From: Mageeibacillus sp. UBA1212
GTDB taxonomy: Bacteria > Bacillota > Clostridia > UBA1212
NCBI GenBank assembly: GCA_002309655.1
Contig: DBXM01000051.1
Coordinates: forward strand, 2,856 to 66,855
Direction: 5' to 3'
DNA length: 64,000 bases
The notes below the pieces were generated by a model. It had not been told where the DNA came from. It searched no databases and saw nothing but the letters and a program-made list of their open reading frames with translations. The translations under genes and the position numbers were made by a program. Each line of letters begins with the position of its first letter. Position 1 is the stretch's first letter. Of the stretch, positions 56,083 through 62,069 are shown in pieces.

Positions 56083-58146
56083 TCATCCTCTGAAAACGAA
56101 CTCGAACCTGCCGCCCGGGGCCGCCTCGCCGTCCGTGTAGAGATTCAGGATCTCGCCTTCATTGTCGCCGGTAAGGTTGTTGTCGGTCCATTTATAGCCG
56201 AATTCAGCCGGCTTTCCGCCGAGTCCCAGGCCGAGAACGGTCCGCTCGATCCTTATCTGGATTATATTCCTGCGCACGTAAATGTCCGCTCCGCCGGCAA
56301 CCTCCCAGTTCCAGCCGCCTTTCGAACGCTCGACGACCGCCCTGCTGCCCTCGGGATTTACTCTGTTCACGACGAACTCGAACCCTTCCCAGGAGTCCGT
56401 TCCCGAGGCTTGAGTGTCGAGGAAGAGCCGCATCCAGCCCTCGCCGTCCGAAGCAGTGATCACGTCGGCGCACTCCGCGTAAAAATACACGAAATTGTCG
56501 TCGTAGGCAACCTTGACAGCCGCAACGTCGTTCCGCGCGGTGTTGTTCTTGTAGGTCTTCCCGCCGTAGCCCTTCGAACCGTTTTTGCGGCTTCTTTCAG
56601 TCGTGCTTCCCACGTACGTGTAGGTCGTGCCGACGTCGTCCCACTGGGAAATCTTTCCGCCGACGTCGATGGTCTTCTGCGCCGCGGGAACAACCGTATC
56701 CTCAACGCCCTTGAAGCGCCTTATGTTCTCGCACAGCTGGTAGTAATAGTAGTCGCGCATCTCGCCGAGAGAGGGCTCGCAGTCGCGGCTGTGTTCGGTG
56801 TCGAACTGGTCGACCATCGTGTTTTTAAGCGTCTTGTCGCCGGCCCAGGTTTCGGACCTGATCGCGACCCACTCGTTCCAGCCGGTGACGAAAATGAACT
56901 CCGGGTCGTTGTTGAGCGCGAAGTCCCACTGCTGCTGGAAGTTGATTCCGTAGTATTTCGAATTCGCGATATTTTTGTCGACAGTGACCACGCTGCCGTC
57001 TCCGAGCTTATAGGTGTAGCTGTAGTCGCCCTTCGCGTAGCTCCTGCCCATGACGTTGTAGCCGCTCATGGCGGTGATGCAGTTGCGCTTGTAGTCCGCG
57101 TTCTGGGCGACGCCCACCGTGATCTCCTCGACCGTGCCGTCCGGTTTTCTGTAGACGCACTGCGGGTAGACCGAGAGCCAGCCCCAGTAGCTGTTCGAGT
57201 TTTCGGTGCTGAAATACGTCGCCTCGTTGTACTTGAACGTAAAGAAATTCCTGATTTCCTTGTCTTTGCCGGACCACCCGAGAGCGTCGGGATACGCGAG
57301 AATCAGCGGTTTCCCGTTCCACATGAACCAGAGATCCTTGTATTTTTCCTGGGAATAGACCTTTTTGTAGAGCTCGCGCAGCTGCGTGTTGGAGTTGTCG
57401 CCCGGTCCGAACGGCAGCATGAATACGATGCACGGCGCGTTGACGCCCTCTTTCCTGGCCTGCCCGAACACCTCGAACAGCGCCGTGAACGACGCCTCCC
57501 ACAGGAAGGTTCCGTTCGTGTTGTCGAGAATGATGCAGTCGACGCCTGCGTCCGCAAGCAGCTCCGCCTGCTTTCTCAACACGTATCTGTCGGTCGTCGA
57601 GTAGTAATTGTAAATGGGCTCATCCCAGAAATGGTAACCGCCGACGCCCTTCCAGACCTTGTGGTTGTAGTCGTGGGTGGCCTTTTCGCGCTCCTCGTCC
57701 GACTCAAGCGTCGCGAGGATCTGGGTGACGTTCCTGATGCCGGTGGACAGCGAGAGCTCCTGATGCCAGGAGGAATAGAAAATGCCGACGAATTTCCCGT
57801 TTTGGGTACTTGACGGAACGGTGCCGGTTCTCAGGGTCGAAGAGTATTCCGTGCCGCCGTTCGAAAGCGTGCGCCCGAGGCCGTCGACAGCCGCGTAGCT
57901 TTCGGGGTGAACGAGTCCCAAGGCAACCTCCGTAACCGGATAGCGCGCCTCAATATCGTAGGCCTCTTCATCGGAAAGAGGCGCCGGCGTGACGTAAGGA
58001 GTCGCCGGCGGAGGCACCTCAGTAGGAATCTCAGTCGTCTTCGGAGCGGATCCTCCCGGGGCGCATCCCGCAAGAATTCCCGCGACCAAAACGGCCGCGA
58101 TTGCGAGCGACGCAGTCTTCTTTAAACCGGATAAATGTGAACGCAA
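56083..58146 (-). CDS. Large lipoprotein, probably a glycoside hydrolase with a TIM-barrel-like core and a C-terminal beta-sandwich domain.
   Basis: Lipobox LAGC. FVTGWNEW-type block. C-terminal Gly/Trp-rich beta-region. Confidence 0.45.
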   Translation of the reverse strand: MRSHLSGLKKTASLAIAAVLVAGILAGCAPGGSAPKTTEIPTEVPPPATPYVTPAPLSDEEAYDIEARYPVTEVALGLVHPESYAAVDGLGRTLSNGGTEYSSTLRTGTVPSSTQNGKFVGIFYSSWHQELSLSTGIRNVTQILATLESDEEREKATHDYNHKVWKGVGGYHFWDEPIYNYYSTTDRYVLRKQAELLADAGVDCIILDNTNGTFLWEASFTALFEVFGQARKEGVNAPCIVFMLPFGPGDNSNTQLRELYKKVYSQEKYKDLWFMWNGKPLILAYPDALGWSGKDKEIRNFFTFKYNEATYFSTENSNSYWGWLSVYPQCVYRKPDGTVEEITVGVAQNADYKRNCITAMSGYNVMGRSYAKGDYSYTYKLGDGSVVTVDKNIANSKYYGINFQQQWDFALNNDPEFIFVTGWNEWVAIRSETWAGDKTLKNTMVDQFDTEHSRDCEPSLGEMRDYYYYQLCENIRRFKGVEDTVVPAAQKTIDVGGKISQWDDVGTTYTYVGSTTERSRKNGSKGYGGKTYKNNTARNDVAAVKVAYDDNFVYFYAECADVITASDGEGWMRLFLDTQASGTDSWEGFEFVVNRVNPEGSRAVVERSKGGWNWEVAGGADIYVRRNIIQIRIERTVLGLGLGGKPAEFGYKWTDNNLTGDNEGEILNLYTDGEAAPGGRFEFVFRG

Positions 58147-58510
58147 AGCAGGTTCCTTCCTTTCGTTGTCTGGGAAAACACTGATTTAATGCTCTTTACG
58201 CAAGCGGCGAATAACTGACTGCACGTGATTGAGCGTTGCACGTTATTCTCTGCTGCGTTTAGTCGCATAAGGTGTCTAACGACAGATTTGCTGCCGCTTG
58301 CTTTTCGAGAGCTCCCCTCTCGCAGTACCTCTGTACAGCTTCGGGGTCGCGCTCGAAAAAATAGCTATTAACTCAGCGTTTTCCTTGAATTCGCTTTTAG
58401 CGCTTTAATGATACCTTTTGGACCGCTTTTTGTCAATAATAATATGACTGTTCGGGAAGAATCAATACCGTCAAAATCTGCCGAATTGGGCAGAAAATTG
58501 CCCGAAAGTA

Positions 58511-58539
58511 TTGACTTTTGCCCGAATTCGTTGTATAAT
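58511..58539 (+). promoter_or_regulatory. Strong sigma-A-type promoter for the XRE-Fic module, with flanking repeats.
   Basis: TTGACT-17 nt-TATAAT. Direct repeat ttgcccgaa at 58497 and 58518. Inverted repeat tgggca-gaaaat-tgccc at 58484-58500. Confidence 0.55.
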
Positions 58540-58567
58540 AAGCATATCATATCTAAGAGGTGGAACC

Positions 58568-58798
58568 ATGGCAGTCAACTATATGAAACTGTGGCATTTG
58601 CTTCTGGACAGAGGCCTGAAAAAGGTCGATCTTGAACGCATGTCCGGCATTTCACACTACACAACAAAAAGAATGACCAGAAACCAGAACATCCCTACCG
58701 ACGATCTCGGCCGTATCTGTCTTGCGCTCGAATGCAAAGTGGAAGATATTATTGAGTTTATACCCGACGAATCGTTTATTGCGGTACAAAACAACTGA
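58568..58798 (+). CDS. XRE-family helix-turn-helix transcriptional regulator (76 aa).
   Basis: SD aagaggtgg. HTH pattern [35 protein letters not shown]. Confidence 0.65.
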
Positions 58799-58820
58799 CA
58801 AACCGGAGGACGAACCGTTC

Positions 58821-59672
58821 ATGAAAACATCAATCAGATTTTTTGAAGATACCGCGGTAAGAGCCGTCTGGGACGAAGAGAGTTCCAAATGGTGGTTTTG
58901 CGCCGCGGACATCGCGGAAGCGCTGACCAAAAGCAGGAATCCGCGCGTATATTGGGCAACCGTGAAACGAAGAAATCCTCAGTTGATTGCAATTTGCAAA
59001 CAACTGAAACTCAGAGCTTCCGACGGCAAAAAATACCTCACGGACGTTGTCGACGAAAGCGGTTTGAATACCGTTATCGCCCTGATTCCGAGCAAAAAGA
59101 GCGAAGTATTCTCAAAGTGGATGAAGAACCTTGAAACTTCTCTGGACGAGAAAAGCAGGCTGAAAGCGTACGAACTGTTCGACAGCGGCTTCATTGACTA
59201 CATCGAGGTTGGAACGGTCAAAGGGCTTCAGCAGATTCACGCGTATATTTTCGGCGGCCTTTACGATTTTGCCGGACAGATCCGGAAGCTGAACATAGCC
59301 AAGGGCGGCTTTGCGTTTGCGCCCGCAATGTATCTTGCCGAAAACCTTAAAACAATCGAGCGCATGCCCGGGAACACCTTCGAGGAAATCGTTGCAAAAT
59401 ACGTCGAAATGAACGTCGCCCACCCTTTCATGGAAGGCAACGGCAGAAGCACAAGGATATGGCTTGATCTTATACTTAAGAAGAATCTCAATCTGTGCGT
59501 CGACTGGAGCAAAGTCAACAAAAAAGACTACCTGGCCGCAATGCAGCGAAGCGTTGTCAACACGGACGCCATCACGGACCTTTTTCGCAACGCCCTTACC
59601 GGCGACATCGACAACCGCGAAATTATAATGAAAGGCATCGATTATTCGTATTACTACGAAGCGGAAGAATAA
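58821..59672 (+). CDS. Bro-N (KilA-N-like) domain fused to a Fic (AMPylation) domain.
   Basis: N-terminal Bro-N pattern [29 protein letters not shown]...ESGLNTVI...SEVFSKWM. C-terminal canonical Fic motif [14 protein letters not shown] ggagga. Confidence 0.75.
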
Positions 59673-59762
59673 CCAAATTATATGCACGCGTATATAAAAC
59701 AGTAGAAAAGCCCGTGCGGTTTTGCTATAATAACCACGATAAAAAATCAGGGAGAAAAAAGT

Positions 59763-62069
59763 ATGGGGAACTCTCGCAAGCAGCCGAATATTCTTAAAAC
59801 CGCGATCGTGTTCCTGCTCGCAGCCGCGATTGTGCTGCTCGTTGTAATTATGATCAAATCTGGAATCGACAAGTCTCGGGTTGAACCCGATCCCACCGGC
59901 GATATTATGGCGGGAACAGATTCCGCGTACGAAACAGGAAGTGTCGACGTAACCGGGGCACCCGAGGAGACAAACCCCGCGGAGACAGATCAGGGAGACA
60001 GTGAGACCCCGACTCCGTTCACGCCGGCAAACACTCCGGCACCTGCGGAGACCGCGACACCGGCAAATGTAACCGCTTCGCCCACGCCCACTCCTGCGCC
60101 GACAAACACCCCCACGCCGACTCCCACTCCGACGCCTACTCACACGCCGACTCCGACCCCCACGCCTACGCCCACGCCAACATCGGCCCAGCCTACAGGC
60201 AGTTCCGGAGTCACCAACGCGGAGCTTCTGGCGATGGAGCGCAAAAATCCTTCCAAGTCTTCAGGCGGTCTGATGATCTCCGAGGTGATGACATCCAACA
60301 CTCAGTTCGCGCCCCAGGGCGGCGAGTACTTCGACTGGGTCGAGCTGTACAACCCCGGCCCCGACACAGTGCGTCTTTCCGACTACACCCTCACCGACAG
60401 GATGAAAAAGACCGACAAGTTCCGGCTTCCCGACAGAACGCTGGCTCCCGGCGGCTACTATCTCATCTTCTGCTCCGGCGAAGGTACCGCCAACCGGGCG
60501 TCGTTTAAGCTCTCCTCCGACGGCGAGTCCGTCTACCTCTACAAGAACGGCGAGCTTCAGGACAGCGTCGACGTTCCGCTTCTCATCCAGAACACAACCT
60601 ACGCGAGATACGGTGAATCATGGGTCTATTCGGTTATTCCGACTCCCGAAAGCGCCAACGCGGCCGGCAGGAATTCCCTTCTCGCCCCGCCCGTTTCCAA
60701 CGTTAAAAGCGGCTGCTACACCGACCCGGTCACGATCACGCTTTCCGGTGCGGGAACGGTCTACTACACGACCGACGGCACCGCCCCGACGACCTCCTCG
60801 AAAGTCGCGAACGGTTCCATTACCGTCACGAAACCCCAGTCCATCCGCGCCATCTGCGTCAGCGACGGCGAGCAGAGTCCGGAGGCATATTTTACCTATA
60901 TTGTGGACAAAACGGCCACCACGCTCCCGATCGTGAACATCGCGGCCGACCTTGAATCCCTCTCCGCTCCGGGAGGCGTTTTCAGCGATCAGCACCAGCC
61001 CTACAAAGGCACCGAGGCGCCGATCCTCCTTACGCTCGTCGAAAACGGCGAGGTGAAATTCTCCGTTCCCTGCGGATTCAAGCTCCACGGCAACGACAGC
61101 CGCTACGGCGCGAAGCAGAATTTCCGACTGCGATTTAAATCCTCTTACGGCGCCAGCAAGCTTCGCTACAAGGTCTTTGAAAACAGGGAGATCTACGAAT
61201 TCGACTCGCTTCTTTTAAAGAGCGGCAGCGAGGACTACACCAGAACGATAATGCGCGACGAGCTGACCACCTCGCTTGTGGACGGAGCGACTTCCCTTTA
61301 CGTCCAGGCGTACAGACCTGTCACGCTTTACATCGACGGCGAGTACTGGGGTATTTACTACCTCCGCGAGCGTCTCGACGAAGACTACGTCGAGGACCAC
61401 ACAGGCTGGGATTCCTCAACGGTTGACGTTATAAAGAGCCTCGGCGAACTTGACGCCGGCTCGATGACCGACTTTTACGACGTCAGGCGCTTCTGCAATT
61501 CGCACGACATGACAGTCGCCGAAAACTACGAATACGCCTGCTCGCGCATCGACATCGACAACGTCATCGACTGGTACATCTGCCGCTCGTACTTCTCCGA
61601 CCACGACATCAGCAATATAAGAATGTTCCGCTCGCCCGACGGCGACAACAAGTGGCACTACATGTTCTACGACCTCGACTGGAGCCTCGACCCGCATTTC
61701 GCGACTGAGGGCTCGTTCACGTGGATCGTCGAGCACACCGAGGACAGCTTCTTCCAGCGACTGATGCTCAACGCTACGTTCCGCGATAAGCTGCTCCGCC
61801 GCCTTGCCGAGCTCAGGAAGACCATCCTGAACGAGGAACACATTCTCGCGGCGATCGACCACATTGCCGACATCATCCGGCCCGAGATAGAACGCGACAG
61901 AGTGCGCTGGGGCATCCGCCAGGGCAAGTGGCAGGAAAACCTGGAAGAACTCAAGGACTTCTTCAGGAACGGCAGCCGCGACACCGCCTACATGAACGAC
62001 ATCAAGAGCTTCTTCGGGCTCTCCGCCTCGCAGCTGATCTCGCAGTACGGCTTCGAGAACGTGAAATGA
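59763..62069 (+). CDS. Membrane-anchored CotH-family protein with a (TP)n linker and a lamin-tail domain.
   Basis: N-terminal TM, TPTPTP linker, LTD block LMISEVMTSN...DWVELYNPG and CotH core (WGIYYLRERLDEDYV, YFSDHDI). Confidence 0.7.
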   Translation: MGNSRKQPNILKTAIVFLLAAAIVLLVVIMIKSGIDKSRVEPDPTGDIMAGTDSAYETGSVDVTGAPEETNPAETDQGDSETPTPFTPANTPAPAETATPANVTASPTPTPAPTNTPTPTPTPTPTHTPTPTPTPTPTPTSAQPTGSSGVTNAELLAMERKNPSKSSGGLMISEVMTSNTQFAPQGGEYFDWVELYNPGPDTVRLSDYTLTDRMKKTDKFRLPDRTLAPGGYYLIFCSGEGTANRASFKLSSDGESVYLYKNGELQDSVDVPLLIQNTTYARYGESWVYSVIPTPESANAAGRNSLLAPPVSNVKSGCYTDPVTITLSGAGTVYYTTDGTAPTTSSKVANGSITVTKPQSIRAICVSDGEQSPEAYFTYIVDKTATTLPIVNIAADLESLSAPGGVFSDQHQPYKGTEAPILLTLVENGEVKFSVPCGFKLHGNDSRYGAKQNFRLRFKSSYGASKLRYKVFENREIYEFDSLLLKSGSEDYTRTIMRDELTTSLVDGATSLYVQAYRPVTLYIDGEYWGIYYLRERLDEDYVEDHTGWDSSTVDVIKSLGELDAGSMTDFYDVRRFCNSHDMTVAENYEYACSRIDIDNVIDWYICRSYFSDHDISNIRMFRSPDGDNKWHYMFYDLDWSLDPHFATEGSFTWIVEHTEDSFFQRLMLNATFRDKLLRRLAELRKTILNEEHILAAIDHIADIIRPEIERDRVRWGIRQGKWQENLEELKDFFRNGSRDTAYMNDIKSFFGLSASQLISQYGFENVK

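Follow-up and report, generated by a model that had tools for sequence, protein, structure and literature searches.

What is a small XRE-type regulator gene doing directly in front of a gene for a Fic enzyme with an N-terminal Bro-N domain? The question is raised by a locus in a 64,000-nucleotide (nt) stretch of Mageeibacillus sp. UBA1212 (contig DBXM01000051.1), referred to here as the window. On its forward strand, an open reading frame (ORF) for a 76-amino-acid (aa) helix-turn-helix (HTH) regulator of the HTH_26 (XRE/VanU-like) type, the putative controller (58568-58798), is preceded by a ribosome-binding site (AAGAGGTGG, 58555-58563). It is followed, across a 22-nt gap that holds GGAGGA at 58805-58810, by an ORF for a 283-aa Bro-N–Fic fusion protein (58821-59672), which corresponds to PDC-S04 (model PDLC04841) in PADLOC. 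The original prediction, made from the letters of the sequence, had described both genes and the gap, and they were found as stated. The answer that we favor, with moderate confidence, is that the locus is a two-gene operon built from two independently mobile parts and that its product is a latent Fic enzyme with a likely role in phage defense. None of the parts is of a new kind: the Fic core is of the class III type, the fusion belongs to a PADLOC candidate family, and the controller is a small HTH protein. As joined in the window, they form an idiosyncratic recombinant seen in one species-level lineage only.

The Fic half of the fusion protein was compared with characterized Fic enzymes. The Pfam Fic domain (PF02661) covers aa 133-219 (E = 9.6e-13) and lies in an NmFic-type (class III-like) core at aa 107-283 (59139-59669, + strand). 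An intact Fic active-site motif had been predicted, and it was confirmed at aa 201-212 (59421-59456, + strand), which fit HxFx(D/E)GNGRxxR, with H201 equivalent to H107 of NmFic from Neisseria meningitidis (PDB 2G03, 3S6A, and 5CKL). The NCBIfam equivalog model for NmFic (NF046029) scored 275.8 bits against a cutoff of 230, matching aa 107-280 on positions 3-176 of 177. Residues 106-282 aligned without gaps to the NmFic chains (E = 1.6e-72; ∼65% identity over the whole 177-residue chain, through the C terminus), and five NmFic residues of note were kept: E102 as E196, H107 as H201, S182 as S276, Y183 as Y277, and E186 as E280. Conservation in the fusion extends to the catalytic motif, to the flap, and to the inhibitory Ser, Tyr, and Glu near the C terminus. 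It differs from NmFic in its additional ∼105-aa N-terminal Bro-N part, since class III enzymes are defined as consisting of the FIC domain only (PMC6408439).

The conserved C terminus bears directly on whether the enzyme is made active. NmFic is conditionally autoinhibited by a Glu and forms an inactive tetramer; its activation proceeds by monomerization and auto-AMPylation of Tyr183, and its target is GyrB, at Tyr109 (PMC6408439, PMC12894286). In the fusion protein, the corresponding inhibitory segment is S276-Y-Y-Y-E280 (59646-59660, + strand; equivalent to NmFic S182 to E186), followed by A281 to give SYYYEA. The description of the protein as competent for AMPylation had overlooked this C-terminal helix, and an intact intramolecular inhibitory helix, which the original prediction had itself named as evidence against its reading, is indicated by homology to NmFic. 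A strict regular-expression search for (S/T)xxxE(G/N) gave no match in the XRE or the Bro-N–Fic protein; the inhibitory helix that the original prediction had suggested looking for is therefore absent in its strict form, whereas its Ser and Glu are present and align with those of NmFic. When the matching ORF at each fetched locus was translated and retained if it was at least 270 aa long, SYYYE[E/Q/T/A] was found in 77 of the 86 fusion ORFs obtained. Because the C-terminal inhibitory Ser/Glu segment is kept, the Fic enzyme is probably latent when made and not a free toxin.

Structure prediction agreed with the assignment of the Fic half. A first AlphaFold2 (AF2) run, on a shallow alignment whose members were all at least 74% identical, gave a predicted local distance difference test (pLDDT) value of 58 and left Bro-N unmodeled, a defect mended by the use of 50%-cluster representatives. 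The second model had a mean pLDDT of 86.2 and a predicted template modeling (TM) score of 0.62. Its Fic half superposed on NmFic with target-normalized TM scores of 0.94-0.95 and root mean square deviations (rmsd) of 1.3-2.0 Å over 174-177 columns, and comparison with the NmFic, EfFic, and HpFic structures gave TM scores of 0.83-0.97, also target normalized. Docking of Glu280 in the active site is expected by homology and not from the model.

The relatives of the regulator bear on whether it acts as an antitoxin. The XRE protein matched Pfam HTH_26 (E = 3.4e-15), and its nearest solved structure was VanU (3TYR, E = 6e-11). No other PDB sequence matched with an E value of 1 or less, and the same search gave no match to solved C proteins, the controllers of restriction-modification (R-M) systems. 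Fifteen relatives were found by protein search. Three of them, at 87% (P0272), 81% (P0275), and 79% (P0276) identity, lie directly upstream of, and overlap, hsdM of type I R-M systems, loci at which PADLOC called MTase_I and Specificity_I. Further relatives precede other cargo: P0278 (71% identity) stands before a DruB homologue (E = 7.5e-91); P0284 (57%; 265 collection blocks) stands before a HATPase_c_3 (MORC-like) ATPase with a type I-like methylase and an S subunit; and P0280 (58%) heads a 1007-aa protein, a PAPS-reductase protein, and a PglZ-like protein. This is evidence that, in this HTH_26 lineage, the XRE gene and its operator may form a portable controller common to several defense systems. 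The relatives at 57-71% identity (loci L112/L113, L114-L117, and L118-L121) all begin MAVSY(M/K)KLWHLLLDR, and the sequence upstream of them differs among the three kinds of operon that they head.

The arrangement also resembles a type II toxin-antitoxin (TA) module, in which XRE would bind and neutralize Fic and regulate its own synthesis, as FicA and VbhA do for class I Fic toxins, or as in Xre-Bro and mobile mystery protein A/B pairs. A small HTH gene does precede a potentially toxic enzyme by 22 nt in one operon, Xre-Bro pairs were proposed to be TA-like modules (PMC2701414), and there is a weak NCBIfam match to mobile mystery protein B. However, the last match scored 33.4 against a cutoff of 124.4, and the XRE protein did not match protein A (TIGR02612/TIGR02613); moreover, Xre-Bro pairs were not TA-like when tested (PMC4257102). 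By regular expression, XRE holds neither (S/T)xxxE(G/N) nor any [ST]xxxE segment, and the inhibitory segment resides in Fic itself. In this it differs from the class I pairs FicT/FicA and VbhT/VbhA, as XRE has no antitoxin helix and the VbhT equivalog model scored 48.7 against a cutoff of 800. Nor do toxin genes follow the closest relatives of XRE, which stand at the head of R-M and other multigene defense operons, and ∼85% of the surveyed fusion loci have no XRE/HTH neighbor. XRE was rejected as an antitoxin since it has no inhibitory motif, since its pairing with the fusion is not conserved, and since its relatives head non-toxin operons; these same points, together with the tests of Xre-Bro pairs, make the TA reading weak, and we regard it as improbable. 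Because so many fusion loci have no adjacent HTH gene, XRE appears to be an occasional, exchangeable controller and not a dedicated partner of Fic.

Candidate operators for XRE were found in the promoter of the operon. The promoter TTGACT-17-TATAAT (58511-58539, + strand), which serves the two-gene operon, had been predicted and was recovered by promoter scan, with 11 of 12 positions matching the sigma-70-type consensus. The palindrome GGGCA-GAAAAT-TGCCC (58488-58503), the candidate main XRE operator, has its center ∼50 nt before the point where transcription is predicted to start and is the only GGGCA-N6-TGCCC in the window, where 0.04 is expected by chance. A direct repeat, TTGCCCGAA, occurs at 58498-58506, overlapping the right arm of the palindrome, and at 58518-58526, within the -35/-10 spacer (both + strand); these are the only two occurrences of the exact 9-mer in the 64 kb. 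The GCCC core of the second copy (58520-58523) is a candidate repressing half-site. The repeats are thus as originally described, although “bracketed” is a slightly loose term for them, as copy 1 ends 5 nt before the -35 element and copy 2 lies in the spacer.

Comparison across the lineage strengthens the case for these elements. The promoter aligned in register over five XRE lineages (that of the window and four others, at 79-87% protein identity), with an invariant order of GGGC-N8-GCCC, a -35 TTGAC 7-8 nt further on, a GCCC 3-4 nt past the -35, and TATAAT, while the bases around and between these elements differed; TTGAC and TATAAT were kept in register in loci L108 and L197-L201. The “GAA” tail of the direct-repeat 9-mer was not conserved; the GCCC cores of both copies were. 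The conservation of the inverted repeat and of the GCCC cores exceeds chance. The short inverted repeat is hence a real and phylogenetically conserved element, and the proposal that the repeats are plausible XRE operators gains support from their conservation with XRE relatives in unrelated loci. Because they are conserved across XREs of 79-87% identity that precede other cargo, the inverted repeat and the GCCC cores appear to go with the regulator and not with the cargo. Blastn against the type I R-M loci L108-L111, together with the promoter alignment, delimited a putative portable controller unit of operator, promoter, and XRE at 58487-58770 (+ strand), with 76% nt homology to type I R-M cassettes. 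A near-palindrome formed by TCTGCCGAA and TTGGGCAGA (58477-58494) was rejected as an operator because relatives do not share its left arm.

The closest functional parallels are the C proteins of R-M systems and RptR, a recently described repressor of a type I R-M island that exemplifies the controller concept (PMC12255303). Like them, XRE is small, of a size expected for a dimer, and encoded by the first gene of an operon that it presumably controls, with operator repeats in its own promoter and with close relatives directly upstream of R-M genes. Unlike them, it is HTH_26/VanU-like and unmatched to solved C proteins, and RptR has another fold. In contrast to those of C proteins, the relatives of XRE precede R-M genes of type I and not of type II, as well as non-R-M defense operons, and the cargo in the window is a Fic enzyme.

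The cargo gene was then considered apart from its controller. The PADLOC model PDLC04841 matched aa 2-282 on positions 4-291 of 292 (E = 6.1e-129), i.e., at full length; PDC denotes a “phage defence candidate” (PMC11514479). At least 8000 homologues of the fusion protein were found by protein search, so that the same architecture recurs thousands of times in the database. Among the 120 best matches, identity is 74-99%, the length is almost always 282-297 aa, and the annotation is almost always Bro-N plus Fic. A scan of species genomes confirmed the fusion in at least 574 loci, and the 80 loci that were kept (57-79% identity) belong to Clostridia, Bacteroidales, Alpha- and Betaproteobacteria, Armatimonadota, and Lentisphaeria. 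One rumen survey contains 1628 PDC-S04 calls (PMC13356809). At the nt level, homology to other loci is confined to the ORF, running from its start codon (58820-58824) to its stop codon (about 59672), and this clean modularity at the ORF borders is a modest new point. Because XRE relatives head R-M operons and the homology blocks end at the unit borders, the locus appears to be a chimera of a type I R-M-type controller cassette and a single-ORF defense-candidate cargo placed 22 nt apart.

PDC-S04 is defined as a single-gene candidate; in the window it comes with a cotranscribed XRE controller, as in ∼15% of loci. An upstream HTH gene was present in about 11-12 of ∼77 other fusion loci and belonged to at least three unrelated HTH lineages. 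In eight of the ∼77, the upstream gene was an HTH_26 gene 38-41% identical to the XRE of the window, and seven of these overlapped the Fic start by 4 nt; an HTH_3 gene was upstream at three loci on the same strand and at one on the opposite strand. Such separate recruitment of other HTH genes would fit selection for tight control of expression. At the other loci, the upstream gene was unrelated: many were housekeeping genes, and R-M methylases, type I R subunits, recombinases, and IS21/integrase genes also occurred. A minority of loci had ResIII, HSDR_N, TIR_2, SLFN_AlbA_2, or KAP_NTPase genes downstream, and PIN and HipA genes were also among these variable neighbors. The second HTH_26 lineage found with Bro-N–Fic occurs in Christensenellaceae-type genomes (L030, L032, L038, L042, L044, L047, and L051), and its own conserved promoter has a perfect palindrome, TTCTCTAAATA(T/A)TAGAGAA, that abuts the -35 element ∼90 nt upstream of the XRE start.

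The genomic setting was examined for signs of mobility. The module (58200-59800) has a GC content of 0.42-0.50, against 0.55-0.62 in the flanks on either side, so that the locus is a low-GC islet set in the core chromosome. A Pfam scan of the largest ORFs in the window, read for the 25 of 58 families listed, placed core-chromosome families upstream: Der-type GTPase domains, G3P_acyltransf, YbeY, and PhoH, as well as tetrahydrofolate dehydrogenase/cyclohydrolase domains, FtsK_SpoIIIE, and FGGY carbohydrate-kinase domains. The low GC content, the spread over at least 574 genomes across phyla, the homology that ends at the ORF borders, and the variable neighbors are evidence that the fusion is an accessory, horizontally moved gene.

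A phage source for such a gene was considered, namely, that the locus is a remnant of prophage immunity in which a Cro/CI-like repressor is paired with a Bro-N antirepressor that gained Fic. Bro-N is typical of phage antirepressors, and the Bro-N part gave PHROG antirepressor matches (E = 1e-3 to 1e-5) and structural matches to phage Bro-N proteins, while XRE matched a PHROG repressor family. A phage origin, hinted at by the Bro-N call in the original prediction, did not hold up, as the full-length fusion is essentially absent from phages: none was found among 50,697 phage records, and IMG/VR held one copy. Among 72,556 plasmids there was also one, on a 424-kb Treponema replicon. No phage genes lay within 8 kb on either side or among the listed Pfam matches of the window, and the adjacent integrase that had been reported as lacking is indeed missing from the Pfam families listed and from the genes within 8 kb on either side in contig L001. 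The nearest XRE relatives head R-M operons, and the C-terminal half is an enzyme and not Ant or KilAC. The locus thus shares with Xre-Bro pairs and phage antirepressors an XRE gene adjoining a Bro-N protein (PMC2701414, PMC4257102) but differs from them in that Fic replaces KilAC, Ant, or ORF6C, in that it has no prophage location, and in that the pairing is not conserved. A prophage remnant is very unlikely. Stand-alone NmFic-like genes do occur in viral contigs (IMG/VR L089-L101), where all have the tail SYYYEG, and SYYYEG-tailed genes are also found in ∼800 Enterococcus plasmids (PLSDB).

The original prediction had seen in the locus a regulator-controlled toxin or a defense-like module and not a housekeeping Fic. 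The defense-like part of this stands, because the fusion matches PDC-S04, the locus is a low-GC islet, and members of the XRE family are found at the start of R-M, Druantia-like, and PglZ operons; a reading of the pair as toxin and antitoxin is weak. Fic-domain proteins have been proposed or shown to act against phage by AMPylation, as in the case of SoFic (PMC12249575; bioRxiv 10.64898/2026.07.09.737422). The fusion shares this domain with SoFic but gave only a marginal PADLOC match to it (E = 0.0018), and SoFic is a class II enzyme of another architecture (PMC11514479).

Several observations weigh against a latent enzyme of the NmFic type that acts in phage defense, and they are best considered with a serious rival, a regulatory Fic without a defense role. 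In the fusion family, neither Gly nor Asn ever follows the inhibitory Glu. Where NmFic has G187, the window protein has A281 and the family has E, Q, T, or A; NmFic Y188 is replaced by E282; and E156, a residue of the NmFic tetramer interface, is replaced by A250. The family-wide E/Q/T/A after the inhibitory Glu appears to be a consistent, new family-level difference, and regulation may differ from that of NmFic in view of this residue and of the change of E156 to Ala. Residues 280-283 have pLDDT values below 50 in the AF2 model. EfFic, a close homologue, acts both as an AMPylase and as a deAMPylase (PMC6408439), and because of this a regulatory rather than a toxic role for Fic is possible. 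Ordinary chromosomal genes flank the module in the window, and in surveys of 74 and 67 fusion loci the immediate neighbors were mostly housekeeping genes and no enrichment in defense islands was demonstrated. Finally, one study found that a PDC-S04 gene gave no protection in its native host (bioRxiv 10.1101/2024.12.20.629700).

According to this rival, Fic would AMPylate and deAMPylate reversibly, tuning gyrase or some other host protein during stress; Bro-N would tether it to DNA, and XRE would be a local repressor. The description of the class III enzymes NmFic and EfFic as growth regulators or as bifunctional (PMC6408439, PMC12894286) suits it, as do the conservation of the inhibitory Glu, which supports deAMPylation, the lack of phage protection just cited, and the housekeeping neighbors at many loci. 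It accords less well with the patchy spread across phyla, the homology confined to the ORF, and the low-GC islet, or with the strain-level variation at the site of the locus (described below). The regulator family is otherwise joined to defense systems, and the same Bro-N subtype is found on other candidate defense C termini (PDC-S13). For these reasons we judge a purely physiological role to be rather unlikely, and a latent Fic in a phage-defense operon remains the reading that we prefer.

The Bro-N half distinguishes the fusion from known class III enzymes, and its relatives were examined separately. The N-terminal Bro-N domain that had been predicted was confirmed both by Pfam (aa 13-102, E = 5.5e-9) and by structural superposition. 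In the AF2 model, it spans aa 2-104 (58824-59132, + strand) as a domain of beta-sheet plus helices with pLDDT values of about 80-94, and ∼100 of its residues superposed on phage and baculovirus Bro-N proteins with rmsd of 2-4 Å; a PDB sequence search with this part returned spurious armadillo-repeat and RelE matches alone. A search with aa 1-105 against 1.84 billion cluster representatives gave 4285 hits at E up to 1e-3. All 32 longer representatives matched the PADLOC profiles of both PDC-S04 and PDC-S13 through the Bro-N part, while their C termini varied: eight were of the NmFic type, two were HTH_3, and the others, including PDC-S13-type proteins, had no Pfam match. This suggests that Bro-N may be a head common to several candidate effectors, and it has the appearance of a promiscuous N-terminal module. 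In Bro-N–Fic, it could serve as a sensor or as a DNA tether. Four of the proteins found (P0197, P0191, P0244, and P0173) are of the PDC-S13 type (PDLC04920), with a Bro-N domain 40-50% identical to that of the window protein and a C terminus of ∼180 aa without a Pfam match; P0173 has an additional C-terminal HTH. Two Bro-N–Fic fusions, P0201 and P0222, have degenerate catalytic motifs (KPFDKCNGPAIR and KPFEHGSERSLR) in which His is changed to Lys, and are probably derivatives of the family that have lost catalytic activity.

A working model of the operon in phage defense can be drawn from these parts. The first part, a strong sigma-70 promoter with built-in operators and a 76-aa HTH_26 regulator that presumably binds them, would be autoregulated through two sites, the palindrome near -50 and the spacer half-site, by analogy to R-M C proteins and RptR. 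Such autoregulation would keep downstream expression within limits, e.g., after transfer to a new host. The second part would be a Bro-N–NmFic-type AMP-transferase, made latent, with its catalytic motif and its inhibitory segment both intact. If it behaves as NmFic does, activation would follow displacement of the C-terminal segment, through auto-AMPylation of the neighboring Tyr or a change in oligomeric state. A likely substrate is a tyrosine in the ATPase domain of GyrB/ParE, whose AMPylation would halt DNA replication and arrest growth. Sensing or targeting would probably fall to Bro-N, through binding to DNA or to a phage protein. The candidate role, in keeping with the PDC-S04 assignment, would be phage defense by abortive infection or growth arrest.

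A bolder version joins two further ideas, and we put it forward only tentatively, as one that may well prove wrong. In the first, Bro-N would be a phage-sensing head that frees Fic from autoinhibition, making Bro-N–Fic a self-contained sensor-effector protein that causes abortive infection by poisoning gyrase or topoisomerase IV; the loss of Gly/Asn after the inhibitory Glu and the loss of the tetramer-interface residue would then be adaptations to the new control. In the second, the HTH_26 regulator with GGGC-N8-GCCC would be a general plug-in controller in gut and rumen Clostridia, serving type I R-M, Druantia-like, MORC-like/methylase, BREX-like, and Fic cargo, with controller and cargo swapped by recombination at ORF borders.

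Were the defense reading true, PDC-S04 would be a very common single-protein module for defense or growth arrest in gut and rumen bacteria. It would also present a sensor domain added to a structurally well-understood autoinhibited enzyme and would be tractable for studying the release of Fic in vivo. For annotation, the HTH_26 lineage with its operator could be used to mark downstream genes as tightly controlled, probably defense, cargo, given that regulator and cargo appear to be exchanged as separate units.

The immediate surroundings of the operon were also described. Near-identical contigs (L001-L003 and L107) carry the entire locus, and an exact lookup of the 687-aa flanking protein, aimed at finding an empty site, gave no match. 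An Rfam search of 58000-59900 was without a match, and no convincing intrinsic terminator was seen 3' of the Fic gene. Directly downstream of Fic lies a gene for a 768-aa protein (59763-62069, + strand) with an N-terminal membrane anchor, lamin-tail, CHB_HEX_C, and CotH kinase domains, and a long Pro/Thr repeat encoded at about 60040-60180; a promoter-like TAGAAA-17-(TG)TATAAT at 59703-59731 belongs to this gene.

Upstream, a strain-specific insertion of ∼220 nt (58165-58384) lies between a gene for the 687-aa protein, a lipoprotein, and the XRE promoter and is missing from the near-identical contigs L002 and L003. Its ends form an 18-nt inverted repeat (GGAAAACACTGATTTAAT and ATTAACTCAGCGTTTTCC), and it has a strong predicted RNA fold (-85.6 kcal/mol, z = -5.6); it had no Rfam match and no second copy in the window. 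The idea that it is a multicopy miniature inverted-repeat transposable element was not supported: a metagenome scan with the 18-nt repeat gave 75 hits, of which 74 were chance matches (∼20 nt in common). The single genuine match, L146, comes from the same locus. Positions 3609-4012 of L146 (equivalent to window positions 58120-58310) are a strain variant that matches the window across the left flank and ∼145 nt into the insertion and then departs into two direct repeats of ∼55 nt (…CCACTCAGTCTCC(G/A)GTTTTGCTTCGCAAAAAGTCGCCTTCGTGCGA…) before the contig ends. Given this variant and the ∼220-nt insertion, the intergenic site beside the 687-aa lipoprotein gene looks like a hotspot of variation. 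A divergent promoter-like TTGACA-17-TATCAT (11 of 12 consensus positions; 58408-58436, - strand) is aimed at the lipoprotein gene. It is kept in L002 and L003, and in the window the ∼220-nt insertion separates it from that gene.

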